A stretch of DNA of 64,000 bases from an uncultured Prevotellaceae bacterium (GCA_947165505.1 CAMVAT010000017.1:7253-71252), one strand, 5' to 3'. Positions 11,501 through 59,069 are shown, counted from the first letter of the stretch. Numbers and translations are program-made. The notes: generated by a model not told the origin, from the letters alone.

Positions 11501-11532
11501 GGAGTATAGGAGTATAGGAGTATAGGAGTATA
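11501..11532. repeat. tandem octamer GGAGTATA x4
   Basis: Four perfect tandem copies read directly from the sequence. Confidence 0.95.
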
Positions 11533-11563
11533 GACAATAGTTATTGCAATTGTACCACATATC

Positions 11564-11638
11564 TCCTACCACCTGCCCCTTGCCCCCTGCCCCAAAACTA
11601 TCCTCCTACCTCCTGCCCCTTGCCCCCTGCCCCTAAAA
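11564..11638 (-). repeat. two tandem ~35-nt copies (40-nt period) of the G-tract module (sense strand GGGGCAGGGGGCAAGGGGCAGG), abutting the FKBP stop codon
   Basis: TCCTACC(A/T)CCTGCCCCTTGCCCCCTGCCCC(A/T)AAA occurs at 11564-11597 and again at 11604-11638. The stop codon is at 11639-11641. Confidence 0.95.
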
Positions 11639-12499
11639 TTATTTTATCTCTTCCAACTCCACGGTGAAGATAAGTGCCGAATAGGGGGGTATTTTTCCTG
11701 CCGGCCGTGAGCCGTATGCCAGTTCCTGGGGGATGTATATCTCCCATTTGCTGCCTACGGGCATCAGTGTGAGTGCCTCGGTCCATCCTTTGATGACCTG
11801 CTTGGGCGTGAACTCGTTGGTCTGCGGGTTGCGCGTATATGAACTGTCGAAGACGGTTCCGTCGATGAGCTTCCCTTCGTATTTCACCACCACACGGTCG
11901 TTTTCTTTCGGCACGGGTCCGTTGCCCTTGCGCAGCACTTTGTATTGCAGCCCGCTGGGGGTCACGACGACCCCTGCTTTCTTGGCATTCTCGGCCAGAA
12001 AGCGCTCACCGGCCTTGCGGTGTGCGTTGCGTGCTTCGGTCATCACCTCTTTTGCCGTCCGGGCATTCATCACCGTGGTGTCTTTCTGCAGAGAGGCGAT
12101 GAAACCGCGGTGAAACAGGGCAGTGTCGATGGTGTCGGTAGCGGCCTTCACCTCGCCGCCGATGCCTGGTATCATGCGGCTTACGGCCATCTGCGCCACT
12201 TGCACGCCTGCGCTATAGGCATTGAGCCGCGGGTCGTTGTGCCGTGCCACAGCCTCTTCGTATCCACGGACAAATTCATCCATCTGACTCTCATCCACAT
12301 TGAAGTTTTGTTTCAGAAACTCCATGAGTCCTTGTGTGGCGCTATTGCCTGCGGCATAGCTGATGGAGTCGGCGGGAGTGGCGAGCACGACAGACTGCGA
12401 CGCCTTGGTCTTTTTCTTCTTGTTCTTATCGCCTGCTGACAGGGGATTGAAAGAAGCACCCGCCAAGATGACGAGTGCCAAAAGGATGATTTTCTTCAT
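11639..12499 (-). CDS. FKBP-type peptidyl-prolyl cis-trans isomerase (FkpA/FklB-like), secreted
   Basis: Signal peptide, an FKBP_N dimerisation helix region, and a C-terminal FKBP domain ...[19 protein letters not shown]...[26 protein letters not shown]. Confidence 0.85.
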
Positions 12500-14226: not shown

Positions 14227-14298
14227 GAGGTGAGAGGTAAGGGGTAAGAGGTGAGAGGTATGCCAAGAACACTAAACACTAAACACTAAACACTCAAC
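14227..14298 (+). repeat. two adjacent heptad arrays: GAGGTGA/GAGGTAA/GGGGTAA x5, then AACACTA x3 plus AACACTC
   Basis: Read directly. The arrays end 13 nt before the cobB ATG. Confidence 0.95.
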
Positions 14299-14311
14299 AA
14301 CCAATAGAATC

Positions 14312-20511: not shown

Positions 20512-20972
20512 TTACCTCTGCAAATGAGCTATGATTACCAAACAGCAGACCCTATGTTATACAGTCTGTTGAAGGATTTAGCCAAAAAGAATCGTGAGCA
20601 TCCCACTCCTGCCGAGTCAGCTCTTTGGAAATTCCTGAAAAACAATGCCCTGGGATGCACCTTTAAGAGACAACATATCGTAGGTGCTTATATCGCTGAT
20701 TTTATCTGCATCCAGGCAAGGTTAATCATTGAGATAGATGGTGGATACCATCAACTGCCCGAACAGCAAATCAGTGATTTGGAGCGTCAACAATGGCTGG
20801 AGTCTCAAGGTTTCAAGGTAATCAGATTCACCAATGAAGAGGTAATGGCAGACATTGAGCGAGTAATAGATACAATAGAACGTTTTACATAGCCAACAAA
20901 GAATACATGGAATCAAATATCAACAACAACAGTAATTATTCCTCCCCCTCGGGGGAGGCCAGGTGGGGGGCT
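20475..20972. mobile_element. candidate mini-cassette: a DUF559 gene bounded by ~37-bp inverted repeats
   Basis: The left arm at 20475-20511, reverse-complemented, is TTATGCCTCCCCCTCGGGGGAGGAAAGGAGGGGGGCT. The right arm at 20936-20972 is TTATTCCTCCCCCTCGGGGGAGGCCAGGTGGGGGGCT. The enclosed gene is AT-richer by hand count: about 40% G+C in its first 60 nt versus about 57% in the last 60 nt of korA. Confidence 0.4.
20524..20892 (+). CDS. DUF559 (Vsr/PD-(D/E)xK-fold) endonuclease-domain protein
   Basis: PTPAESALWKFLKN...FKRQHIVGAYIADFICIQARLIIEIDGGYH...QWLESQGFKVIRFTNEEV is the typical DUF559 pattern (D...E.DG..H, then R.. and V.RF.N). Confidence 0.8.
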   Translation: MSYDYQTADPMLYSLLKDLAKKNREHPTPAESALWKFLKNNALGCTFKRQHIVGAYIADFICIQARLIIEIDGGYHQLPEQQISDLERQQWLESQGFKVIRFTNEEVMADIERVIDTIERFT

Positions 20973-22022
20973 TCTGACATCAACAACAACAGTAACTATT
21001 CCTCCCCCTCGGGGGAGGCCAGGTGGGGGGCTTCTGACTTCAAAAAAGGGCAGCCCCGTTGGTGTCCCGGTTGTGGCGACCACTTCTTCCTGGCATCACT
21101 CCATAAAGCATTGGCCGAGATAGGCGTGGCTCCCTACGACACCGCCGTCATCTCTGGCATCGGCTGTTCCAGCCGTCTGCCCCACTACATGGCTACCTAC
21201 GGCATGAACACCATCCACGGGCGCGCTGCCGCCATCGCCACAGGCGCCAAGGTGGCCAACCCCCGCCTCACCATATGGCAGGTGAGCGGCGACGGCGACG
21301 GTCTGGCTATCGGCGGCAACCACTTCATCCATGCCAACCGCCGTAATATCGACCTCAATATGATTCTGCTCAACAACCGCATCTACGGTCTGACCAAGGG
21401 ACAGTACTCACCCACCTCACCGCGCGGATTCGTGTCGAAGTCGAGCCCCTACGGCACCGTCGAAGACCCGTTCCGCCCGGCTGAACTGTGCTTCGGCGCA
21501 CGCGGACATTTCTTCGCCCGTGCCGTAGCCACCGACACCGCCGGCACGGTAGAGGTGCTCAAGGCCGCCTACGAGCACAAGGGCGCCTCGGTGTGCGAGA
21601 TACTGCAAAACTGCGTCATCTTCAACAATGGCACGCACGACTTGGTCTATACCAAGGAGGGACGTAAGAAAAACGCCATCTACGTGCGCCACGGCGAGAA
21701 ACTCGTGTTCGGCGAGAACAACGAATACGGCCTGGTGCAGGACGGCTTCGGCGTGAAGGTAGTGAAGATAGGCGAAAACGGCGTCACCCTCGACGATATC
21801 CTGGTGCATGACGCCCACTGCCAGGACAACACCTTGCAGCTGAAGCTGGCTATGATGACACCCGAAGACGGATTCCCCATCGCCCTCGGCGTCATCCGCG
21901 ACGTGGAGGCTCCCACCTACGACGCTGCCGTGCACGAGCAGATTGCAGAGGTGAGCGCACAGAAGAAATACCACAACTTCACCGAACTGCTCGAGACCAA
22001 CGACATCTGGGAGGTGAAATAG
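20907..22022 (+). CDS. korB: 2-oxoglutarate:ferredoxin oxidoreductase subunit beta (TPP-binding)
   Basis: RWCPGCGDHFFL, GIGCSSRLPHY and GDGDGLAIGGNHFIHANRRN (TPP-binding GDG...N). The only in-frame ATG is at 20907, so about 45 N-terminal residues come from cassette and repeat sequence. Confidence 0.85.
   Translation: MESNINNNSNYSSPSGEARWGASDINNNSNYSSPSGEARWGASDFKKGQPRWCPGCGDHFFLASLHKALAEIGVAPYDTAVISGIGCSSRLPHYMATYGMNTIHGRAAAIATGAKVANPRLTIWQVSGDGDGLAIGGNHFIHANRRNIDLNMILLNNRIYGLTKGQYSPTSPRGFVSKSSPYGTVEDPFRPAELCFGARGHFFARAVATDTAGTVEVLKAAYEHKGASVCEILQNCVIFNNGTHDLVYTKEGRKKNAIYVRHGEKLVFGENNEYGLVQDGFGVKVVKIGENGVTLDDILVHDAHCQDNTLQLKLAMMTPEDGFPIALGVIRDVEAPTYDAAVHEQIAEVSAQKKYHNFTELLETNDIWEVK
20919..21038 (+). 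repeat. 60-bp tandem duplication (2 units, 1 mismatch) inside the 5' end of korB
   Basis: ATCAACAACAACAGTAA(T/C)TATTCCTCCCCCTCGGGGGAGGCCAGGTGGGGGGCTTCTGAC occurs at 20919-20978 and again at 20979-21038. It is translated as INNNSNYSSPSGEARWGASD twice. Confidence 0.95.
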
Positions 22023-33184: not shown

Positions 33185-33216
33185 AAGTAGGGACAGGGCA
33201 CGCCCTGTCCCTACTT
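33185..33216. repeat. palindrome AAGTAGGGACAGGGCACGCCCTGTCCCTACTT (REP-like hairpin)
   Basis: Near-perfect 32-nt palindrome. Related copies lie at 34231-34256, 57716-57741 and 57773-57798, with half copies at 41596-41613 and 58353-58366. Confidence 0.95.
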
Positions 33217-33916: not shown

Positions 33917-34361
33917 CACAATGCACAATGCACAATGCTTCCGTTCGGGTGGAACCAGCGGTCGGCGGCCGAAGGGAAAGCCAATTGCAATCCACCCGCA
34001 GAGAGCAGATGGATTTGCAATCCATCCACTATTATTCTTTCCCCACCCAACCCTCCCATGGGAGGGCTTCCAACCTATCCCTAAACCCCTTCCCAATCCC
34101 TAAGAAGGGACTTAACCGCTCCTACCCGTCGCTCGTTCACTAAGGTACTGCTCCCTTTTTCTGCCGGTCGCAGTATTGTTTTAGGCAACAGAGTTGCGAT
34201 TATTTGTGTTCGCTCCGCTCACCGTGCTGCGGACAGGGCACGCCCTGTCCCTACTTGCGTGGAGAGCATATCTCCTGCCCCCTGCCCCTCGCCCCAAAGC
34301 TATTTTTCACTGTCGCTCAACAACTCGTCTCTTACCTCTTACCTCTTACCTCTTACCTCTA
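33917..34361 (-). repeat. largest composite repeat element; it fills the TPM-lemA spacer
   Basis: Module order in the sense (minus) direction: TACCTCT heptads, unique arm, G-tract, palindrome, the ~190-nt element also present at 5184-5352, GGATTTGCAATCC, the GGTGGAACC...TCCACC hairpin (also at 41649-41697), and CACAATG x3. Confidence 0.9.
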
Positions 34362-41516: not shown

Positions 41517-41921
41517 AAGAGGTGAGAGGATAGTTGAGGGGCAGGGGATTTCTGAGGGGCGGGGAGCAAGGTGCAAGGGGCAGGAGATTACTTTGCCGCC
41601 CTGTCCCTACTTCCAAGCACTAAACCCTCAACCCTACCCCTCCGTTCAGGTGGAACCAGCGGTCGGCGGCCGAAGGGAAAGCCAATTGCAATCCACCTGA
41701 GTAGAAGAAAAAGCATTTGCAATGCTGCTCTCGGATTTCAAATCCTGTATTCCATGCGTCAGGATTACAAATCCCGACGAACGGGGACTTTGAACATTGA
41801 ACATTGAACTTTATGATTACCTCTCTATCCCCCATTTATCGTGATAGGCGTACTATCTGCTCCCCTCCCTACAAGGGAGGGGCTGGGGGGTGGGTCTGAT
41901 TGCAACTAAACCCTCAACCAA
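41517..41921 (+). repeat. composite repeat element filling the leader of the fructan regulator
   Basis: Module order: AAGAGGTGAGAGGA, G-tract 41537-41588, half palindrome, CACTAAACCCTCAACCC, the GGTGGAACC...TCCACC hairpin, three GGATTNNNAATCC-type palindromes, TTGAACA x2.5, the CCCCTCCC-TACAA-GGGAGGGG hairpin, and CTAAACCCTCAACCAA abutting the ATG. Confidence 0.9.
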
Positions 41922-44429
41922 ATGAAATATCTGCGACTATTTCTATACTTCACTGCCATGACACTATTGACGGCTGCGTGCGCCGACAACGACACACGCT
42001 ACCGCATCGGCGTGTCGCAATGCTCGGAAGACATCTGGCGCAACTGGCAAAACGCGGAAATGAAGATGGAGGCCAACTTCCACGACGGCATTGAACTCAT
42101 CTTCGCCTCGGCGCAAGACAACAGCGAGCGACAGACACAACAGATCGACAGTCTGGTGGCGGCCGGCATCGACCTGCTCATCGTGGCGCCCAACCAACTG
42201 CAAAACGTGTCGCCTGCCATCGACCGCGCCTACGACAAGGGAATACCCGTCATCGTGTTCGAACGAAAGACCGACTCGCAAAAATACACCGCCTTCATGA
42301 GCGCCGACAACTATGAGATGGGACGGCAGATGGGACAGTACATCGCCACGCGCATGGGGGGCAAGGGACGTGTCATGGAGATTCTCGGACTGAAAGGCTC
42401 TTCGCCCGCCGACGAGCGCCACAAGGGTTTCCGAGAGGTCATCGACAATTACCCGCAAATAGAGGTGACAGCCGAACTGCAAGGCGACTGGACCGAAGAG
42501 ACGGCCTATGGGCAGGTGCTGCAATACAAGGGCGACCTGTCACAGATTGATATGGTGTTCGGACACAACGACCGAACGGCCATCGGTGCACGACGCGCCT
42601 TCATCGAGCGCGGCGAAGACAGCACACTCACCCTCTTCTGCGGCATCGACGGACTCGCCGGGGCCAACGGGGGCATTCAGCAGGTGCGCGACTCGCTGCT
42701 CGAGGCCAGCTATATCTACCCCACACGAGGCGACCTGCTGCTCAAACTGGCGCTCGATATCCTCGACGGTAAGCCATACGAGAAAGAGACGCTGCTCAAG
42801 TCGGCCATCGTCACACACGACAACGCGCAGGTGCTGCTGCTCGAAAGCGACGAGGTGATGCGACAGGCGAAAAACCTTGAACAGATGCACCAACAGGCCG
42901 ACAACTATCTCAAAGAACTGGCCAACCAACGCACGCTGACACTGCTCGCCATCGGTTTCATCATCCTGCTATGCCTGCTGCTCGCGGCTATCTACCTCTA
43001 CTTCAGGCAGAAAGCACGCATCGCTGCCGAACGGACGAAAATGGAGCGCGAACAGCTCGACTTCTACACCCAGGTGAGCCACCAACTGCGCACGCCGCTG
43101 ACACTCATCGAGGGACCGCTCGACCAACTGGCACTGACCGACGACATCCGGCAGGCCGACAAGCAGGCAGCAGACCTCTTCGCCATCGTCAGACGAAACA
43201 CCCGACAGTTGGCACAGCTCATCAACCGCATGCTCGACGCGCAAGCAGGAGGCAGCATCGACGACGACAGTGCCGCACAACACGTACAGACCACGACCAT
43301 AACGACAGAGACGACAGACAATCACCTACACGCTGATACGGCCGTTCACGACGACATTCCTGCCGACGACGACCGCCACACGCTGCTCATCGTGGACGAC
43401 AATGCCGACATACGCGCCTACCTGCGGCATATACTCAAAGACAAATACCACATCTGCGAGGCCGCCGACGGACAGGAAGGACTGCGAGTGGCCAACGAAC
43501 AAGTGCCCGACCTGATTGTGTCTGACGTGATGATGCCCGTGATGAACGGACTGGAATTCTGCCAACACATCAAGAAAGACATGATCACCAGCCATATACC
43601 CGTGATCCTGCTCACCGCGCGCGCCCTGAGCCAACACCAGATTGAGGGATATGAGAGCGGGGCCGACGCCTATCTGACCAAGCCCTTCTCGGCCGAACTG
43701 CTCACCGCCCGCATCGACAACCTGCTGCAAAGCCGCCAACGCCTCAAAGTGCTGTGGGGCGACACCGAGGAGCTTTCTGAGGGGATTTCCGAGGGGCAGG
43801 GGCTTTCCGAGGGGCAAGGGGCAGGGGGCAAGGGGCTTTCTGAGGAGCAGGGAGCAGGGGGCAGGGGGCAGGAGAATACTATCCCCATCACGAAAGCTAA
43901 TGTCCAAACTCCTACACTCCCAAACTCCCAAACTCCCAACTCCCTAAACGACCAAACAACCACCTCCCCAAACTCCCAAACTCCCAAACTCCCAAACTCC
44001 CAAACTCCCAACTCCCTAAACGACCAAACAACCAAACAACCAAGCGACCAACTCCCCTCCCCCCAAAACGCTTTCATCGAGCGGTTTAAAAAAGTGGTGG
44101 AGCAGCATCTCGACAACAGCGACCTAAGCGTGGAAGACCTGAGCGCTGAGATGCACCTGAGCCGCGTGCAACTATACCGCAAGGTGAAGGCACTCACGGG
44201 TTACAGTCCCATCGACCTGCTGCGCAAGGCACGTCTGGCTCGCGCACACGCCCTGCTCAAGGCTGACAATGAGCTCTCCGTGAGCGAGATAGCCTACCAG
44301 ACGGGATTCTCATCGCCCTCGTACTTCACCAAATGCTTCAAAGAAGAATACGGCATCGTGCCGGGAGAGGCAAGAAAGACCTCCCCCTCAGAAAAAATAC
44401 AAAATCCTTGCAAATGTGATTTTTTTTGA
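41922..44429 (+). CDS. hybrid two-component-like regulator: periplasmic sugar-binding (PBP1) sensor, TM, HisKA, receiver, AraC HTH; no HATPase_c domain
   Basis: PBP1/LacI-type periplasmic domain (IGVSQCSEDIWRNWQNAEM...LIVAPNQ...GIPVIVFER). TM helix LTLLAIGFIILLCLLLAAIYLYF. H-box FYTQVSHQLRTPLTLIEGPL. REC domain LLIVDDNADIRAYL...DLIVSDVMMPVMNG...ILLTA. HTH_AraC SVSEIAYQTGFSSPSYFTKCFKEEYG. This is the architecture of the fructose-sensing BT1754 type minus the ATPase domain. Confidence 0.8.
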   Translation: MKYLRLFLYFTAMTLLTAACADNDTRYRIGVSQCSEDIWRNWQNAEMKMEANFHDGIELIFASAQDNSERQTQQIDSLVAAGIDLLIVAPNQLQNVSPAIDRAYDKGIPVIVFERKTDSQKYTAFMSADNYEMGRQMGQYIATRMGGKGRVMEILGLKGSSPADERHKGFREVIDNYPQIEVTAELQGDWTEETAYGQVLQYKGDLSQIDMVFGHNDRTAIGARRAFIERGEDSTLTLFCGIDGLAGANGGIQQVRDSLLEASYIYPTRGDLLLKLALDILDGKPYEKETLLKSAIVTHDNAQVLLLESDEVMRQAKNLEQMHQQADNYLKELANQRTLTLLAIGFIILLCLLLAAIYLYFRQKARIAAERTKMEREQLDFYTQVSHQLRTPLTLIEGPLDQLALTDDIRQADKQAADLFAIVRRNTRQLAQLINRMLDAQAGGSIDDDSAAQHVQTTTITTETTDNHLHADTAVHDDIPADDDRHTLLIVDDNADIRAYLRHILKDKYHICEAADGQEGLRVANEQVPDLIVSDVMMPVMNGLEFCQHIKKDMITSHIPVILLTARALSQHQIEGYESGADAYLTKPFSAELLTARIDNLLQSRQRLKVLWGDTEELSEGISEGQGLSEGQGAGGKGLSEEQGAGGRGQENTIPITKANVQTPTLPNSQTPNSLNDQTTTSPNSQTPKLPNSQTPNSLNDQTTKQPSDQLPSPQNAFIERFKKVVEQHLDNSDLSVEDLSAEMHLSRVQLYRKVKALTGYSPIDLLRKARLARAHALLKADNELSVSEIAYQTGFSSPSYFTKCFKEEYGIVPGEARKTSPSEKIQNPCKCDFF
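43766..44066 (+). repeat. about 300-nt composite repeat translated in frame in the REC-HTH linker
   Basis: G-tract (GAGGGGCAGGGGC...GGGGCAGGGGGCAGGAGAAT) followed by CCCAAACT octamers and two copies of CCCAACTCCCTAAACGACCAAACAACC. This is the same module order and polarity as the intergenic elements. Confidence 0.9.
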
Positions 44430-44935: not shown

Positions 44936-47900
44936 ATGAAACAACTGAAGCGATTTCTTCTGAGCTTCGCGCTCATCTTTGCAAGTACTATTATGTACGC
45001 GCAAACGGAAATCACTGGAACTGTCGTCGATGAAACCGGAGAAGGGGTCATCGGCGCCACCGTGATTGAGAAAGGTACCTCGAACGGTACCGCCACCGAC
45101 CTGGACGGCAACTTCAAACTGAAAGTAGCCAACGGTGCCACTCTGGTCATCACCTACATCGGATATGATGCCGTAGAGGCCGTGGCCACACCAGGCATGA
45201 CCATCTCGCTGAAAGAGAACGCCGCCGAACTGGCTGAGGTGGTGGTCACCGGTTATCAGGTACAACGCAAGGCCGACCTGACGGGTTCGGTAGGCGTGAT
45301 TGAGACCAAGGACTTCAAAACCAGCAACACCGACCCCATGGCATCGCTACAAGGTAAGGTGCCGGGCATGACCATCACCTCAAACGGCTCTCCCTCGGGC
45401 GAAGCCAACGTGCAGATACGTGGTATCGGCTCTATGGGCGGCTCAAGCACCGCTCCCCTCTACATCGTTGACGGAATGCCCTACAGCGGATCGCTCAACA
45501 GCCTGAATGCCTCAGACATCGAGACAATGCAGGTGCTCAAGGATGCCGCATCGGCCAGTATCTACGGTTCACGCGCTGCCAACGGTGTCGTGGTCATCAC
45601 CACCAAGAAGGGTAAGAAAGGCGACAAGATCAACATCGACTTCAACGCCTCGCTGTCGGTGGCGTGGATGTCGCAGAAGATGAAACTGCTGAACAGCCAG
45701 CAGTATGCTACCGCCCTGGTGCAGGCTGCGCTGAACGACGGCAAGAACCCCGCCGACTACGCCCAGAACTATGGCCTGGCACTCAACGTAGAAAACGGCA
45801 CGCCTATCTCCGTTTACAACCCTGCCACCGGCACTATGGAGTCTTACTCTGTGGGGGGATTCTATGACGGATATATGAATGCCAAGATGACGATGCCCTA
45901 TAGCGACACCGACTGGGTGGACGAAATAGGACGTACGGGCATCACACAGAACTATGACCTCTCGCTCTCGAAGGCTACCGACAAGAGCTCTTCACTCTTC
46001 TCTGCCGGCTACAAGAAGGCGCAGGGTGTGCTGAAACATACCGACTTTGAGAATTTCTCGGCTCGTTTCAACAGTGTTTACAAAATCAACAGCATCGTCA
46101 CCGTAGGCGAGAATGCCACATTCGCTTATTCTAACAATGTGGACTGTGCACCCCTGGAGAACGCATTGAAGATGTCGCCCACACTGCCTGTCTATGAGAT
46201 AGACGGCGAGACATTCTCAGGCCCCGTGGGTGGCATGAGCGACCGCCAGAATCCTATGCGAGAGCTCTATCACAACAAAGACAACCGCCTGAAGAAGTGG
46301 CGCATCTTTGCCAACGCCTTTGTCGATATCACTCCCATCAAGGGCATGCTCTTCCGTTCCAACTTCGGTATCGACTATACCAACAGCTATATCCGCAGCC
46401 TGCAGCACACATGGAATTCTGATGTCGTGAAGAATAGCACCAACGCCAGCACCATGGCGCAAACACACAGCACCAAGTGGACGTGGTCGAACACCTTGCA
46501 GTATAATTTCGACATCGTAGAGAATCACAATCTCAACGTGCTCGTTGGTATCGAGGCCCATCAAGACAATGGCATCGACTTCTCAGGACGCCGCACCGAC
46601 TATCCGCTGGAGACCTACGACTATATGTGGCCCAACGCCGGCACTGGCATCCAGACCGTCACCGGCGCAGGCGACGCTTACAAACTGATGTCGTACTTCG
46701 GCAAGATCGACTACAACTGGAACGACCAACTGCTGGCCTCGTTCACGCTGCGTTACGACGGCTCCAGCCGCTTCGGTAAGAACAACCAGTACGGTACATT
46801 CCCCTCAGCATCGCTGGGTTATCGCCTCTCAAAACATATCAATGCCGACTGGCTGCACGACTGGAAAGTCCGTGCGAGCTACGGTATCACCGGTAACCAA
46901 GGCATGAACTCTAACACGGCACACTACGGACTCTACGTGGCCGACTACGGCTCAAGCCGTGAGAACTCTACCGCCTACGACGTCAACCTGCAAGGGTCGG
47001 GTACGCTGCCCTCAGGCTACTACAAACTGCAGTCGGCCAACGAGGACCTCAAGTGGGAGTCGTCGTCACAGCTCAACTTCGGTACCGACTTCTCGCTCTT
47101 CAGAGGCGACCTCTACGGTTCTTACGACGTGTTCTTCAAAGAAACAAAAGACATGCTTGTACAGCCTGCATTCCTCGGTGCCATCGGATTTGGCGGTCAG
47201 ACGTGGATCAACGGTCCCACGCTCAAAAACTGGGGTATGGAACTCATGCTGGGCTATCGCCACAACACATCCTATGGCCTGTATTACAACATCACGGCCA
47301 ATGCCGACTTCTATCGCTCTAAGGTGACCTATCTGCCTGAGAAGTCGAAAAACTCGTACGAGCACAACGACTACCACAACCTGGCACAAGACGAGCGCGC
47401 CTACGGTTCGCGCATCGGCTATGTGGTCGAGGGACTCTATCAGTCGCGCGAGGATGTGCTTGCACACGGACAGGCCGGTGCCCGCGTCGGCGGACTGAAA
47501 TATGCCGACCTCAACGGCGACGGACGCATCAACGAGCAAGACCGCACATGGGTCTTCAATCCCGTGCCCGACTTCTCTTACGGTATCAATATCAATCTGT
47601 CGTACCGCGATTTCGACTTCACCATGTTCTGGCAGGGTGTGGCTGGCGTTGACATCATCAACGACCAGAAATTCCAGACCGACTTCTGGAGCATCACCGA
47701 CGCCGGCTCAAACAAGGGCGAACGCGTGGTTGAAGCATGGACACCGGCCAACAGCGGCTCCTCCATCCCGGCACTGACCACATCCAACAGCGCCGACGAG
47801 GGACGTATGTCGTCATACTTCGTAGAGAACGGCTCTTATGTCAAGATGCGTACACTGCAGCTGGGCTACACCCTGCCCGCAGCACTGACCAAGAAACTGC

Positions 47901-48046
47901 TGCTGCAGAAAGCACGCATATTCTGCTCTGGCGACAATCTGCTGACCATCAAGTCGGGCTCGCTCACTTGCTCAGACCCCGAAAACACGGCATGGAACTA
48001 TCCCCACACTGCATCATTCACCTTCGGCGTACAGCTGGGATTCTAG
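44936..48046 (+). CDS. SusC/RagA-family TonB-dependent transporter (fructan PUL)
   Basis: Signal peptide ...IMYA-QT, CarboxypepD_reg domain (ITGTVVDETGEGVIGATVIEKGTSNGTATDLDGNF), plug (VVVTGYQVQRKADLTGSV) and the terminal ...SFTFGVQLGF. Confidence 0.9.
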   Translation: MKQLKRFLLSFALIFASTIMYAQTEITGTVVDETGEGVIGATVIEKGTSNGTATDLDGNFKLKVANGATLVITYIGYDAVEAVATPGMTISLKENAAELAEVVVTGYQVQRKADLTGSVGVIETKDFKTSNTDPMASLQGKVPGMTITSNGSPSGEANVQIRGIGSMGGSSTAPLYIVDGMPYSGSLNSLNASDIETMQVLKDAASASIYGSRAANGVVVITTKKGKKGDKINIDFNASLSVAWMSQKMKLLNSQQYATALVQAALNDGKNPADYAQNYGLALNVENGTPISVYNPATGTMESYSVGGFYDGYMNAKMTMPYSDTDWVDEIGRTGITQNYDLSLSKATDKSSSLFSAGYKKAQGVLKHTDFENFSARFNSVYKINSIVTVGENATFAYSNNVDCAPLENALKMSPTLPVYEIDGETFSGPVGGMSDRQNPMRELYHNKDNRLKKWRIFANAFVDITPIKGMLFRSNFGIDYTNSYIRSLQHTWNSDVVKNSTNASTMAQTHSTKWTWSNTLQYNFDIVENHNLNVLVGIEAHQDNGIDFSGRRTDYPLETYDYMWPNAGTGIQTVTGAGDAYKLMSYFGKIDYNWNDQLLASFTLRYDGSSRFGKNNQYGTFPSASLGYRLSKHINADWLHDWKVRASYGITGNQGMNSNTAHYGLYVADYGSSRENSTAYDVNLQGSGTLPSGYYKLQSANEDLKWESSSQLNFGTDFSLFRGDLYGSYDVFFKETKDMLVQPAFLGAIGFGGQTWINGPTLKNWGMELMLGYRHNTSYGLYYNITANADFYRSKVTYLPEKSKNSYEHNDYHNLAQDERAYGSRIGYVVEGLYQSREDVLAHGQAGARVGGLKYADLNGDGRINEQDRTWVFNPVPDFSYGININLSYRDFDFTMFWQGVAGVDIINDQKFQTDFWSITDAGSNKGERVVEAWTPANSGSSIPALTTSNSADEGRMSSYFVENGSYVKMRTLQLGYTLPAALTKKLLLQKARIFCSGDNLLTIKSGSLTCSDPENTAWNYPHTASFTFGVQLGF

Positions 48047-51621: not shown

Positions 51622-53304
51622 ATGAGAAAGACAATCATGCTTTTGACCCTCGTGCTGATGGCTGTGACCACCAAGGCGCAGACTCCGCAGATCCTGGGCG
51701 ACAACCATGCGATGCTGCCACTCAAGGTCAGCGGCAAGTATCTGCTGCTGCCCGTGCAGGAGAAAGAGGAGATAGCCAACGTGCGCGTGGTAGTGAACAA
51801 TGAGCAACGCCAGGCGCTCAACGTGAAACTGGCTGTTGACAAAGTCGATTACTTCGTGCCGCTCGACATCCGACGCTTCGGCTCCGACCACGTGCTGCTC
51901 GACATCACCCTGCATGGCGACCGACGCGCCACCGGACCGGTGAAGGACTTCGCCTGCTGGAAGGAGATGCGACAGAGCGACACCTTCGACACCGCCAACC
52001 GCGAGCGCTTCCGCCCCGTATATCACCACTCGCCGCAGTACGGGTGGATGAACGACCCCAACGGTATGTTCTATAAGGATGGTGTCTATCACCTCTACTA
52101 CCAGTGGAACCCCTACGGATCGCAGTGGGAAAACATGACATGGGGGCACTCTACATCGACCGACCTCATTCACTGGCAGGCTCAGCCCACTGCCATCGAG
52201 ATAGACGCCCTGGGCTCTATCTTCAGCGGTTCGTGCGTGGTGGATAAGAAAAACGACCGTGTGGTGGCATTCTACACCTCGGCAGGACAGCACCAGACGC
52301 AGTCGATGGCTGTGTCGCGCGACAACGGACGCACCTTCGAGAAATATGCCGCCAACCCCATCCTCACCTCCAACGAACCCGACTTCCGCGACCCGAAGGC
52401 ATTCTGGAACCCCGACATCCAGCGCTGGAACCTGATACTGGCCGTGGGACAGGAGATGCGTATCTACTCATCGACCGACCTGAAGGAATGGACCTACGAG
52501 AGCAGTTTCGGCAAGGGCTTCGGATGCCATGACGGCGTATGGGAATGCCCCGACCTGATCAAGATGCAGGTGCGCGGCACCAACCAACAGAAGTGGATGC
52601 TTATCTGCAACATCAACCCCGGTGGCCCCTTCGGCGGCTCGGCTACACAGTATTTCATCGGCGACTTCGACGGACACCGTTTCACCTGCCAGCAGACCGA
52701 CACACGGTGGATGGACTATGGCAAGGACCACTATGCCACCGTCACCTTCGACAATGCTCCCGACGGGCGCCATATCGCACTGGCATGGATGTCTAACTGG
52801 CAGTATGCCAACCAGGTGCCCACCAAGCAATACCGCTCGTCCAACAGCATACCACGCGACCTGGGGCTCTTCGCCTATAACGGCGACGTGTATTGCAGCG
52901 TGACACCCTCGAAAGAGATGCTGGCAGCTCGTGGCAAGAAGGTGAAGAACCCGACGGAGACCTGCGAGATCATCGTCGATGTGAAGGCCAACACCGAGAT
53001 TACACTCTCTAACGCCAAGGGCGAACAGGTGGTGATGCGCTACGACGCACAGCAACAGACCTTCGCCATGGACCGCACCAAGAGCGGCGACTGCTCGTTC
53101 AGCGAGGCTTTCCCCGTCACAACCACGGCTCCCACCTACGGCAACATCAAGCAACTGCGCCTGTTCATCGACCGCTGCTCGATCGAGGCCTTCGATGCCG
53201 ACGGCAAGATGGCGATGACCAACCTGGTGTTCCCCTCAGAGCCCTACAACAAAATCACGGTGAAGGGCGGCAAAGCCACCATCTACACGTTGAACGTTGA
53301 ATAG
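51622..53304 (+). CDS. glycoside hydrolase family 32 (exo-beta-fructosidase / levanase-inulinase type)
   Basis: YHHSPQYGWMNDPNGMFY (nucleophile Asp), FRDPKAFW (RDP) and VWECPDL (acid/base Glu). Signal peptide ...TTKA-QT. Confidence 0.9.
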   Translation: MRKTIMLLTLVLMAVTTKAQTPQILGDNHAMLPLKVSGKYLLLPVQEKEEIANVRVVVNNEQRQALNVKLAVDKVDYFVPLDIRRFGSDHVLLDITLHGDRRATGPVKDFACWKEMRQSDTFDTANRERFRPVYHHSPQYGWMNDPNGMFYKDGVYHLYYQWNPYGSQWENMTWGHSTSTDLIHWQAQPTAIEIDALGSIFSGSCVVDKKNDRVVAFYTSAGQHQTQSMAVSRDNGRTFEKYAANPILTSNEPDFRDPKAFWNPDIQRWNLILAVGQEMRIYSSTDLKEWTYESSFGKGFGCHDGVWECPDLIKMQVRGTNQQKWMLICNINPGGPFGGSATQYFIGDFDGHRFTCQQTDTRWMDYGKDHYATVTFDNAPDGRHIALAWMSNWQYANQVPTKQYRSSNSIPRDLGLFAYNGDVYCSVTPSKEMLAARGKKVKNPTETCEIIVDVKANTEITLSNAKGEQVVMRYDAQQQTFAMDRTKSGDCSFSEAFPVTTTAPTYGNIKQLRLFIDRCSIEAFDADGKMAMTNLVFPSEPYNKITVKGGKATIYTLNVE

Positions 53305-53527
53305 GGGCAGGGAGCAGGGGGCAGGAGATATGCTCCGAGCACCCCGCAATAAACCAGGAATAACCCCGGAAATTCCGGAGAAACCGGAATTCCGGAAAAT
53401 CCGCCGCCCCCCCGAAAGCCCCCTCAACCCTAAACCCTAAACCCTCAACCCTAAACCCTCAACCCTCAACCCTAAACCCTCAACCCTCAACCCTCAACCC
53501 TAAACCCTAAACCCTCAACCCTCAACC
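53304..53527 (+). repeat. composite repeat filling the GH32-MFS spacer, ending in 15 tandem CCCT(C/A)AA heptads
   Basis: G-tract starting at the G of the TAG stop codon, then ATGCTCCGAGCACCCCGCAATAAAC, CCGGAAATTCCGG and CCGGAATTCCGG palindromes, then the heptad array at 53421-53525. The ATG is at 53533. Confidence 0.95.
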
Positions 53528-53532
53528 AAAAA

Positions 53533-57440: not shown

Positions 57441-57595
57441 TTCTCTTTGCTTTTTTTGAGTTAGTAATACAATTTGTCTCTCTCTGTCTTATTCAGACGG
57501 TGCAAAGATAACGTCAAATGATGCTCCGCTCCAAATCTTTTCCCTCACGCTGTATGAAATGCCCCCTTTTTTGTACGAAATGGAGGGCTTCTTTG

Positions 57596-57905
57596 TTGAG
57601 GGTTGAGGGTTGAAGGTTGAGGGTTGAGGGTTGAGGGTTGAAGGTTGAGGGTTGAGGGTTTAGTGTTGAGGGTTCTAGCAGGGTTTTTGTTGAGGGTTGA
57701 GTGTTGAGTGTTTGGAAGTAGGGACAGGGCGTGCCCTGTCCGCAAGAAGCCGGCATTTGATATTCTCACTACGGACAGGGCACGCCCTGTCCCTACTTGC
57801 GCGGAAAAGTAATCTCCTGCCCCTTGCCCCCGGCCCCTCAGAAAAACCCCTGCCCCTAAGCTATCTACTCCCCTCCCTACAAGGGAGGGGCGGGGGTGGG
57901 TCTGC
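57596..57905 (-). repeat. composite repeat filling the ybeY-lipoprotein spacer
   Basis: Module order in the sense (minus) direction: CCCCTCCC hairpin (it holds the ybeY stop codon), G-tract 57811-57856, two palindrome copies 57773-57798 and 57716-57741, CTTCCAAACACTCAACACTCAAC, then 11 heptads (plus strand TTGAGGG/TTGAAGG/TTTAGTG) at 57596-57672. Confidence 0.95.
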
Positions 57906-58314: not shown

Positions 58315-58352
58315 AGTTGTTTTTGGGGAGTTTAGACATTAGTTATCGTGGT

Positions 58353-58934: not shown

Positions 58935-59069
58935 TTATTGAGTGTTTAGGGCCGGGCTTTCTGGGCTTTCCGAGTTTATTGCGGGGTGCTCGGAGCATAT
59001 CTCCTGCCCCCTGCCCCCTGCCTCCTGCTCCCTGTCCCTTGCCCCAAAATATCCTCTTACCTCTCACCT
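58935..59069 (-). repeat. composite repeat filling the ruvB-coaD spacer
   Basis: Module order in the sense direction: GAGGT heptads at 59053-59069 abutting the ruvB stop, G-tract 58999-59045, ATGCTCCGAGCACCCCGCAATAAAC (the same 25-mer as at 53330-53354), and CCTAAACACTCAA. Confidence 0.95.

Follow-up and report, generated by a model that had tools for sequence, protein, structure and literature searches.

Probable in-frame insertion of an intergenic composite repeat into the linker of a fructan regulator in an uncultured Prevotellaceae bacterium

A stretch of 64,000 nucleotides from an uncultured Prevotellaceae bacterium (GCA_947165505.1 CAMVAT010000017.1:7253-71252; hereafter the window, with positions counted from its first letter) includes the gene of a putative fructan regulator (41922-44429, + strand) in which the linker between the receiver (REC) domain and the AraC-type helix-turn-helix (HTH) domain is encoded by a composite repeat resembling intergenic elements of the same window. 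How did such a sequence come to be read as protein, and what has become of the regulator that carries it? A preliminary description, made from the sequence alone, offered two explanations: insertion of an element into a tolerant linker, or fusion of a sensor-REC gene with a separate AraC-type gene through their spacer. Comparative genomics indicates that the linker probably arose by in-frame insertion of an intergenic composite repeat.

The regulator and its repetitive linker

The regulator gene is one unbroken open reading frame (ORF) of 835 codons, as had been described. The predicted protein comprises a sugar-binding sensor domain (Peripla_BP_4, residues 39-284, E 4.6e-43) followed by a transmembrane segment, and then HisKA (residues 379-439), REC (Response_reg, residues 489-598) and AraC-type HTH (HTH_AraC/HTH_18, residues 740-819; 44139-44378, + strand, 3' of the insert), all assigned by Pfam on the same polypeptide. 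The sensor domain matches the BT1754 sensor domain (PDB 2x7x, E 5.3e-79, residues 22-339), and the C-terminal half matches a solved REC-HTH fragment of a hybrid two-component system (HTCS) regulator (PDB 12aw). Genes for SusC (44936-48046), SusD, a levan-binding surface glycan-binding protein (SGBP), a GH32 enzyme and an MFS protein lie 3' of the regulator in the window and next to every other allele. The gene encodes a BT1754-type regulator for the fructan utilisation locus next to it, and "fructan regulator" is a fair name for it because of the BT1754-type sensor and 12aw matches and the SusC, SusD, SGBP, GH32 and MFS genes downstream.

The BT1754 HTCS and the HTCS of the Prevotella copri inulin polysaccharide utilisation locus (PUL), which is required for growth on inulin (PMC8634118), likewise combine a periplasmic binding protein (PBP) sensor, HisKA, REC and AraC HTH and adjoin SusC, SusD, GH32 and levan-binding protein genes, but the linker of the window protein is 3-4 times longer than theirs and no HATPase_c domain is detected in it (no PF02518 match at E<=0.01). 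None of the 120 closest homologues (the best 120 of 8000 candidates at E<=1e-20) has HATPase_c on record either, and the gap between HisKA and REC in the window protein is only ~45 residues, modelled with low confidence by AlphaFold2; the absence of HATPase_c is a trait of the subfamily, independent of the insert. Exact look-up returned no identical record of the window protein. Its closest relatives form a group at 94-98% identity, representing the window species (linkers of 66-98 aa), and a group at 78% identity, representing a sister species (metagenome-assembled genome (MAG) SRR12081293_bin.71, linker of 49 aa), which is also the nearest species representative for the protein (76-78% identity).

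The REC-to-HTH linker (residues 614-716; 43761-44069, + strand) occupies 103 codons between the conserved sequences LKVLWG and AFIERFKK and is derived almost entirely from a repeat element. The preliminary description had reported a composite repeat of about 100 codons translated in frame, and translation from 43767, one base beyond the start it gave, reproduces its peptide exactly (EELSEGISEGQG...SPQ). The first portion, or G-part (43761-43879, + strand, 119 nt), is made of (GGRGCAR)n heptamer modules spaced by TTTC(T/C)GA and duplicated in the window strain; it contains GGCAGGAGAAT at 43867-43877, ends in GGCAGGAGAATAC and encodes ..SEGQGAGGKG..EEQGAGGRGQEN. A non-repetitive spacer or leader of 22 nt, TATCCCCATCACGAAAGCTAAT (43880-43901, + strand), ends in CTAATGTC, leads into GTCCAAAC and is 91-98% conserved across all five alleles of the window species. 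The final portion, or C-part (43902-44069, + strand, 168 nt), starts with GTCCAAAC and consists of NNNACTCC-family octamers (CAAACTCC, TACACTCC) and AAACGACCAAACAACC units, which encode periods of 8 aa of the type PNSQTPxL; CCCAAACT octamers span 43904-44037, with five perfect copies at 43967-44006. The duplicated 27-nt unit noticed earlier is present, but belongs to a larger duplication of 72 nt, or 24 codons (43904-43975 versus 43976-44047, 86% identical). The translated linker, which contains the peptides GLSEEQGAGGR and ANVQTPTLPNSQTPNSLNDQTTTSPNSQTPK, has a first part in which Gly, Gln, Glu and Ser abound and a second rich in Pro, Asn, Ser, Gln and Thr. The abundance of these repeats is not due to chance: the window holds 6 matches to the double octamer, 10 to GGGGCAGGAGAWAT and 26 to GGGGCAGGGGGCA, against 0.02, 0.78 and 2.2, respectively, expected from shuffled sequence.

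Inverted repeats in the insert amount to a single 10-nt pair, and its RNA fold is weaker than that of shuffled controls (z = +2.75). Two readings of the regulator copy were dropped because the searches for inverted repeats and RNA structure were negative, namely a palindromic element, ruled out by the lone 10-nt pair and the weak fold, and a MITE (miniature inverted-repeat transposable element), for which there are neither terminal inverted repeats at the insert ends nor a target-site duplication at the two junctions (CTGTGGGGC with GA... at the 5' end, ...CAAAAC with GCT at the 3' end). The G-part is a candidate former of G-quadruplexes (G4): its coding strand matches a four-tract motif (regular expression G3+N1-7 x4) in the alleles of the window, L081, L082 and L087, and the same expression is not matched in L083 or in the sister-species allele. 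At Rfam gathering thresholds only a tRNA was recognised in the window, and the repeat modules match no Rfam family.

Intergenic relatives and the case for insertion

Six intergenic loci of the window carry the G-module (41537-41592 and 53303-53335 on the + strand; 57808-57870, 58997-59045, 34268-34295 and 11560-11645 on the - strand). The claim that the insert has the architecture and polarity of intergenic elements is borne out at three loci, where a G-module is followed by a spacer and then by a C-rich array of 7-8-nt units (from 11645 to 11501, - strand; 41537-41640, + strand; 53303-53527, + strand). The coding G-part aligns unit for unit with 41537-41592 and with 57870-57808, each having TTTCTGA, four heptamers and GAGAWTAC. 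The remaining arrays in the window all lie, on a rough gene map, between genes or in likely leaders.

The element at 41537-41640, directly upstream of the regulator gene, consists of a G-module (TGAGGGGCAGGGGATTTCTGA, four heptamers and GAGATTAC), half of a GTAG-type hairpin and CCCTCAA heptamers, and the G-module at 57808-57870 (- strand) of TTTCTGA, heptamers and GGCAGGAGATTAC. The composite at 11501-11645 (- strand), upstream of an AsnC-family gene, has two G-modules, a junction of ~30 nt ending in ACTATTGTC, and (TATACTCC)x4, in the order and polarity of the coding insert; because the Pfam domains of the AsnC ORF begin at residue 65, its array lies upstream of the likely true AsnC start. 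The composite at 53303-53527 (+ strand) runs from a G-module at the stop codon of the GH32 gene through a 90-nt spacer into (CCCTCAA/CCCTAAA)x15, which ends 6 nt before the ATG of the MFS gene. Relatives of the junction and core were found with blastn-short, and the 3' half of the coding spacer proved identical at 21 of 24 bases to an intergenic leader of the window type, CACGATAACTAATGTCTAAACTCC (58350 to 58327, - strand), which ends 12 nt upstream of the ybeY start codon. The element next to the regulator sits in a mosaic block (~41520-41900, ~370 nt) that is whole in the window, has two pieces missing in strain L081 (9700-10000) and is entirely absent from strain L082 (9824-10000); the block is a presence/absence polymorphism within one species.

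In the sister genome the intergenic copies have a G-rich heptamer array on the 5' side, followed by GAGAATA(G/C)TCTGCAAATGGAGTATTGTC and then by NNNACTCC octamers on the 3' side, and the coding insert reads TATCTTTGGGGCAAGGAGCAGGGGACAAGGAGCAGGAGAATACCCAGCAAATGGAGTATCGTCCAAACGTCCAAACGCCCAAACT... A non-repetitive core of 28 nt, GAGAATANNNNGCAAATGGAGTATYGTC, has five exact pattern matches among 185,579 species genomes (one genome per species), all in the sister MAG: the coding copy and four intergenic composites, to which the coding copy is identical at 24-25 of 28 positions. The leader CTAATGTCYAAACT, with the pattern (A/C)TA(A/T)TGTCYAAACT, precedes intergenic octamer arrays in many Prevotellaceae MAGs. 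Because the core, the leader and the G-module are shared with intergenic copies, the insert is a member of a family of interspersed composite repeats and not mere low-complexity sequence.

The preliminary description asked whether the linker is short in orthologous regulators, and it is. Among the 119 closest homologues measured, the median linker is 26 aa, and outside the clade of the window and sister species the range is 15-41 aa; by the same family-wide measure the sister species has 51 aa and the window species 68-105 aa. In the solved 12aw fragment, the stretch corresponding to 97 residues of the window protein is 20 aa long. Short orthologous linkers, a non-repetitive junction shared with intergenic copies, and variation in length by multiples of 3 nt together favour the first of the two explanations offered earlier, insertion into a tolerant linker. 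The REC-to-HTH linker is a permissive site: other lineages of the regulator have unrelated elements built of heptamer arrays at this position, namely GAAGAAT/TAAGAAT arrays that form an inverted pair with their reverse complement on either side of a core (L316, 1880-2050) and ATTCCTC arrays with three 21-nt units (L317, 560-680).

Only one frame passes through the insert without stop codons, the other two containing stops, and that frame is open in six distinct alleles from independent assemblies of at least eight samples: five alleles of the window species, one of which was recovered identically from four samples, and one allele of the sister species, recovered from five contigs. The linker varies from 66 to 103 aa between strains of the window species, and from 49 to 103 aa with the sister species included. 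The G-part measures 119, 86, 80 or 56 nt and the C-part 168, 96, 129 or 192 nt, so that each half varies only by multiples of 3 although the units are of 7 and 8 nt; strain variation in such multiples had been proposed as a check, and all six alleles conform to it. Between the window and sister species dN/dS is 0.08 for the HTH domain, 0.115 for REC, 0.09-0.13 for the domains upstream of the insert and 0.59 for the linker, while dS in flanking coding sequence is 0.6-1.1. Thus, the insert is evidently read through, because the HTH domain downstream of it remains under purifying selection (dN/dS 0.08). An AlphaFold2 model (mean pLDDT 62) gives residues 611-714 a pLDDT below 50 and no secondary structure; the last REC helix ends at residue 613 and the first HTH helix starts at 717, with REC and HTH both modelled confidently (pLDDT 80-88 for HTH). 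Open frame, allele lengths, selection and model together indicate translation into a probably functional HTH domain, with the insert as a predicted disordered tether. A scan of metagenome contigs for further alleles found only homologues of 68% identity or less, a linker-centred protein search only fragments of distant homologues and no truncated alleles, and the 103-aa linker used alone as a protein query had no match at E<=0.001.

On the insertion account, a linker that has ~20-30 residues in nearly all relatives would here have been taken over by a clade-specific mosaic interspersed repeat composed of a (GGRGCAR)n module ending in GGCAGGAGAATAC, a short core or leader ending in (A/T)TGTC, and NNNACTCC octamers, an element that in these genomes normally lies between genes, often in the leader just 5' of a start codon. 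The window and sister species share the variant GCAGGAGAATAC, where intergenic window copies have ATAT or ATTA, and a similar 3' boundary, at which CCCCAAA(A/G)C adjoins GC(T/G)TTC, encoding PQ(N/S)AFI where other homologues are acidic. Because of this shared boundary and the shared GCAGGAGAATAC, we infer a single entry of the element in the common ancestor of the two species. The copy would owe its survival to one frame that lacks stops and to a site between two domains that fold independently; the translated insert would then serve as a disordered tether and leave the regulator functional. Since that entry slippage, unequal recombination or gene conversion involving intergenic copies would have lengthened and shortened the arrays, with selection removing changes that are not multiples of 3 nt, to give the strain-specific linkers of 66-103 aa. 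The element would be a tolerated passenger rather than an adaptation.

Several points weigh against this account. The sample of alleles is small and comes mostly from short-read metagenome assemblies, in which the copy number of repeats can be mis-assembled, and the single 835-aa product is a prediction from sequence. The spacer or core differs between the species (TATCCCCATCACGAAAGCTAAT in the window species, CCCAGCAAATGGAGTATC in the sister species), so that a single ancestral insertion needs later replacement or conversion; each version resembles the intergenic copies of its own genome, and as an alternative to conversion by those copies the site may have been hit twice, independently. Neither terminal inverted repeats nor a target-site duplication nor an associated transposase was found for the insert, and "insertion" is therefore a description here, not a demonstrated mechanism. 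The longer linker may also have a functional role.

Alternative explanations of the translated repeat

Such a role is the substance of the alternative that survives best, although we consider it unlikely: a long disordered tether, or a G4-prone G-part acting in mRNA or DNA, would tune the coupling of REC to HTH or the translation of the regulator and would be kept for that reason. The insert has been retained in two species that have diverged to a dS of 0.6-1.1 in its flanks, other lineages also have long linkers at the same site, most alleles of the G-part match the four-G-tract motif, and G-rich heptamer repeats of four units form G4 in Xanthomonas and Nostoc (PMC4692102). Against this, the linker is fast-evolving (dN/dS 0.59) and not conserved in length (49-103 aa), two alleles are without the G4 motif, and the same G-module is found in many unrelated proteins and in either orientation, which speaks against a role particular to the regulator.

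Quite improbable is a local origin, by which the linker would have grown in place through slippage and would resemble intergenic arrays only through a genome-wide mutational bias. Array copy number does shift between strains in steps like those of slippage, and the conserved codons TGG GGC (LWG) that precede the insert resemble GGGGCAR and could have seeded an array of that kind. What such a process does not account for is the sharing of non-repetitive parts with intergenic copies, namely the 28-nt core (five copies, in one genome only), the TTTCTGA and GAGAWTAC edges and the leader CACGAWARCTAATGTCYAAACTCC, and the succession of G-array, core and octamer array in the same order and polarity as in intergenic copies.

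A phase-variable switch is unlikely. Gain or loss of an 8-nt or 7-nt unit would shift the frame, remove the HTH domain and turn the fructan locus off in part of the population, and several features are those of a contingency locus: tandem units in frame whose lengths are not multiples of 3, copy number that differs between strains, five perfect CCCAAACT copies in the window allele, and stops in both alternative frames. Unlike in contingency loci, however, all six alleles keep the frame, each half of the insert varying by multiples of 3 nt only; the tract is short and impure, with perfect runs of 2-5 units that in other strains are of 2-3 units broken by variant units; and the protein is a cytoplasmic regulator instead of a surface structure. 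A truncated product of ~620 aa from the window species is not among the best protein matches listed. Phase variation is thus unsupported, because no frameshifted allele was seen among the six.

The second explanation of the preliminary description, fusion of a sensor-REC gene with a separate AraC-type gene through a translated spacer bearing a resident repeat, is refuted and has very little probability left. The insert does have the make-up of intergenic DNA, and the regulator of L316, a distant lineage, is annotated as two ORFs, but in that case the break falls between HisKA and REC, away from the linker. All of the 120 best homologues listed carry the same set of Pfam domains, REC and HTH included, in one protein, REC and HTH are contiguous with a short linker in 119 homologues, and the solved 12aw fragment is contiguous as well; the fused REC-HTH state is therefore ancestral and far older than the insert. 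The two ORFs of L316 (PBP-HisKA, 6-1358; REC-HTH, 1501-2361) represent either a real split gene or a frameshift error in the contig.

A hidden stop or frameshift, which the preliminary description named as a danger of low-complexity sequence and which error-prone repeats and the metagenomic source of most comparison alleles might suggest, has almost no likelihood, as the frame is open in independent assemblies from at least eight samples, with one allele identical in four samples and the sister allele in five contigs, and the downstream HTH domain is under purifying selection in the same frame.

Copies in other genes and comparison with known repeats

An exact-pattern scan for the G-module returned at least 50 loci, of which 20 among the matches listed are from Prevotellaceae or Bacteroidales MAGs; in 12 of these 20 the module lies in frame within a recognisable gene (L096, L100, L102, L108, L110, L111, L118, L119, L124, L128, L132 and L141). 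The host genes are unrelated housekeeping genes and encode MutS2, CobT, an alpha-amylase family protein, saccharopine dehydrogenase, RNase R, peptidases S9 and M16, DUF6298, CCA/poly(A) polymerase and LpxB. Both orientations occur, the sense reading being ..GQGA(R/G)(G/S)KGQEN.. and the antisense ..SPAPCPLPLAP.., and several in-frame copies are palindromes of a G-arm and a C-arm. RNase R has the G-module at the same site in three species, and in that of L110, whose copy is palindromic, a segment of 37 residues corresponds to 9 in Bacillus subtilis RNase R (8cdu). In a contig that also bears a window-species allele of the regulator, the Lgt gene (L084:3033-3971) contains an in-frame G-module followed by CAAAGYT heptamers.

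There is roughly an even chance that these copies belong to a hitherto undescribed family of mosaic dual-array elements of a Prevotellaceae clade, comparable to Rickettsia palindromic elements (RPEs), in which G-rich heptamers, a unique core and a C/A-rich array of 7-8-nt units are joined. Such a family would be dynamic between strains, would have many copies in 5' leaders and would repeatedly have colonised genes in frame in both orientations, with sequence passing between coding copies and the intergenic ones in the same genome; the exchange is suggested because the species-specific 28-nt core is common to coding and intergenic copies. Spread without inverted repeats or target duplications might possibly proceed by template switching or gene conversion at G-rich sites.

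RPEs and intragenic repetitive extragenic palindromes (REPs, tagged GTAG/CGTC) have been reviewed by Di Nocera et al. 2013 (PMC3733652). Like these, the elements described here are short multi-copy interspersed repeats that occur both between genes and in frame in apparently functional ORFs, encode segments of tens of residues, decorate unrelated proteins including enzymes of nucleic-acid metabolism, and are absent from related orthologues. Unlike these, the regulator copy combines tandem arrays of two short periods (7 and 8 nt), placed around a unique core, is non-palindromic and is polymorphic in length between strains; the element is from Bacteroidota, and no link to a RAYT-type transposase was found, no RAYT-like gene having been searched for. 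The likeness to RPEs proposed in the preliminary description is sound in that an interspersed repeat lies in frame in an ORF, but does not extend to palindromic structure in the regulator copy, though other in-frame G-module copies have it; the palindromic pairs of RNase R are nearer to RPEs than the regulator copy is.

The G4-forming heptamers GGGNATC of Xanthomonas and Nostoc (Rehm et al. 2015, PMC4692102) are likewise G-rich 7-nt units, commonly four per set, dispersed and mostly non-coding near ORF ends, whereas the unit here is GGRGCAR, is bounded by fixed edges (TTTCTGA and GGCAGGAGAWTAC), is linked to further modules and is predicted from its motif to form G4. The TAACTGA heptamers of Beggiatoaceae, cyanobacteria and some Bacteroidetes (MacGregor 2015, PMC4679880) also form 7-nt arrays that are mostly intergenic, often a few nt 5' of start codons, are patchily distributed across lineages and are not known to spread by any particular means, but their forward strand carries stops and cannot be read through, whereas the window arrays are stop-free in one frame and evidently translated. 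The long simple sequence repeats that Mrazek et al. 2007 surveyed, as cited in PMC4679880, belong with the same comparison. Literature searches gave no description of these elements in Prevotella or Prevotellaceae. In-frame interspersed repeats are a known kind of element; what is new is the phylum and the unusual architecture of tandem arrays.

In-frame "selfish" repeats have so far come mostly from obligate intracellular bacteria, notably Rickettsia, and the dual-array family, if real, would extend an RPE-like process to free-living bacteria of the gut and rumen. A similar process, still active in organisms this abundant, would be a tractable system for studying how repeats spread, which sites tolerate them and how new disordered linkers arise. 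The linker length polymorphism is a natural experiment on the tether that can be tolerated between receiver and HTH, and possibly a strain marker. One DNA unit can apparently be read as leader, spacer or protein. For annotation, low-complexity stretches in Prevotellaceae genes can be genuine translated insertions and are not necessarily errors or gene boundaries.

The G-module pattern and the triple octamer are also matched exactly, and repeatedly, in Nostoc, Anabaena, Trichodesmium, Desulfobacterales HSG2, Pontibacter and Botryobacter, that is, in cyanobacteria, a Desulfobacterales MAG and Bacteroidota of the Cytophagia type. Abundant 7-nt tandem repeats are already a known feature of some of these groups.

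The C/A-rich arrays of 7-8-nt units (CCCTCAA, NNNACTCC, AACACTA) often stop a few nt before a start codon with the C/A strand as the sense strand, which places them in 5' leaders; examples are at 41905-41921, 53421-53532, 14268-14311 and 58315-58345 (- strand) in the window and at L107 4540-4657, with further loci in MAGs. Bacteroidota make little use of Shine-Dalgarno pairing, and these arrays may act as unstructured 5' leaders. The long arrays of the window are CCCTCAA/CCCTAAA x15 (53421-53527) and the complement-type GTTGAGG x11 (57595-57674); CCCTAAA complements the plant-type telomere unit TTTAGGG, and G-tracts are accordingly present on the G-rich strand too.

Hairpins with the pattern GTAGGGACAGGGC(A/G)(C/T)GCCCTGTCCCTAC are found at 33186-33215, 57718-57745 and 57773-57800, with half of one at 41597-41612, interleaved with G-modules; their first four bases are GTAG and their last four CTAC, as in the GTAG-tagged REP superfamily (PMC3733652). 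A different repeat is present within the ORF at 20907-22022 (+ strand), a 2-oxoacid:ferredoxin oxidoreductase beta-type gene, the N-terminus of which includes two tandem in-frame 60-nt copies (20919-21043), each a hairpin CCTCCCCCTCGGGGGAGG followed by GGTGGGGGG, together reading MESNINNNSNYSSPSGEARWGASD twice. These copies are probably translated, because there is no in-frame start codon between them and the conserved WCPGCG motif. Related hairpin elements lie between genes at 41862-41900 and 57866-57900.

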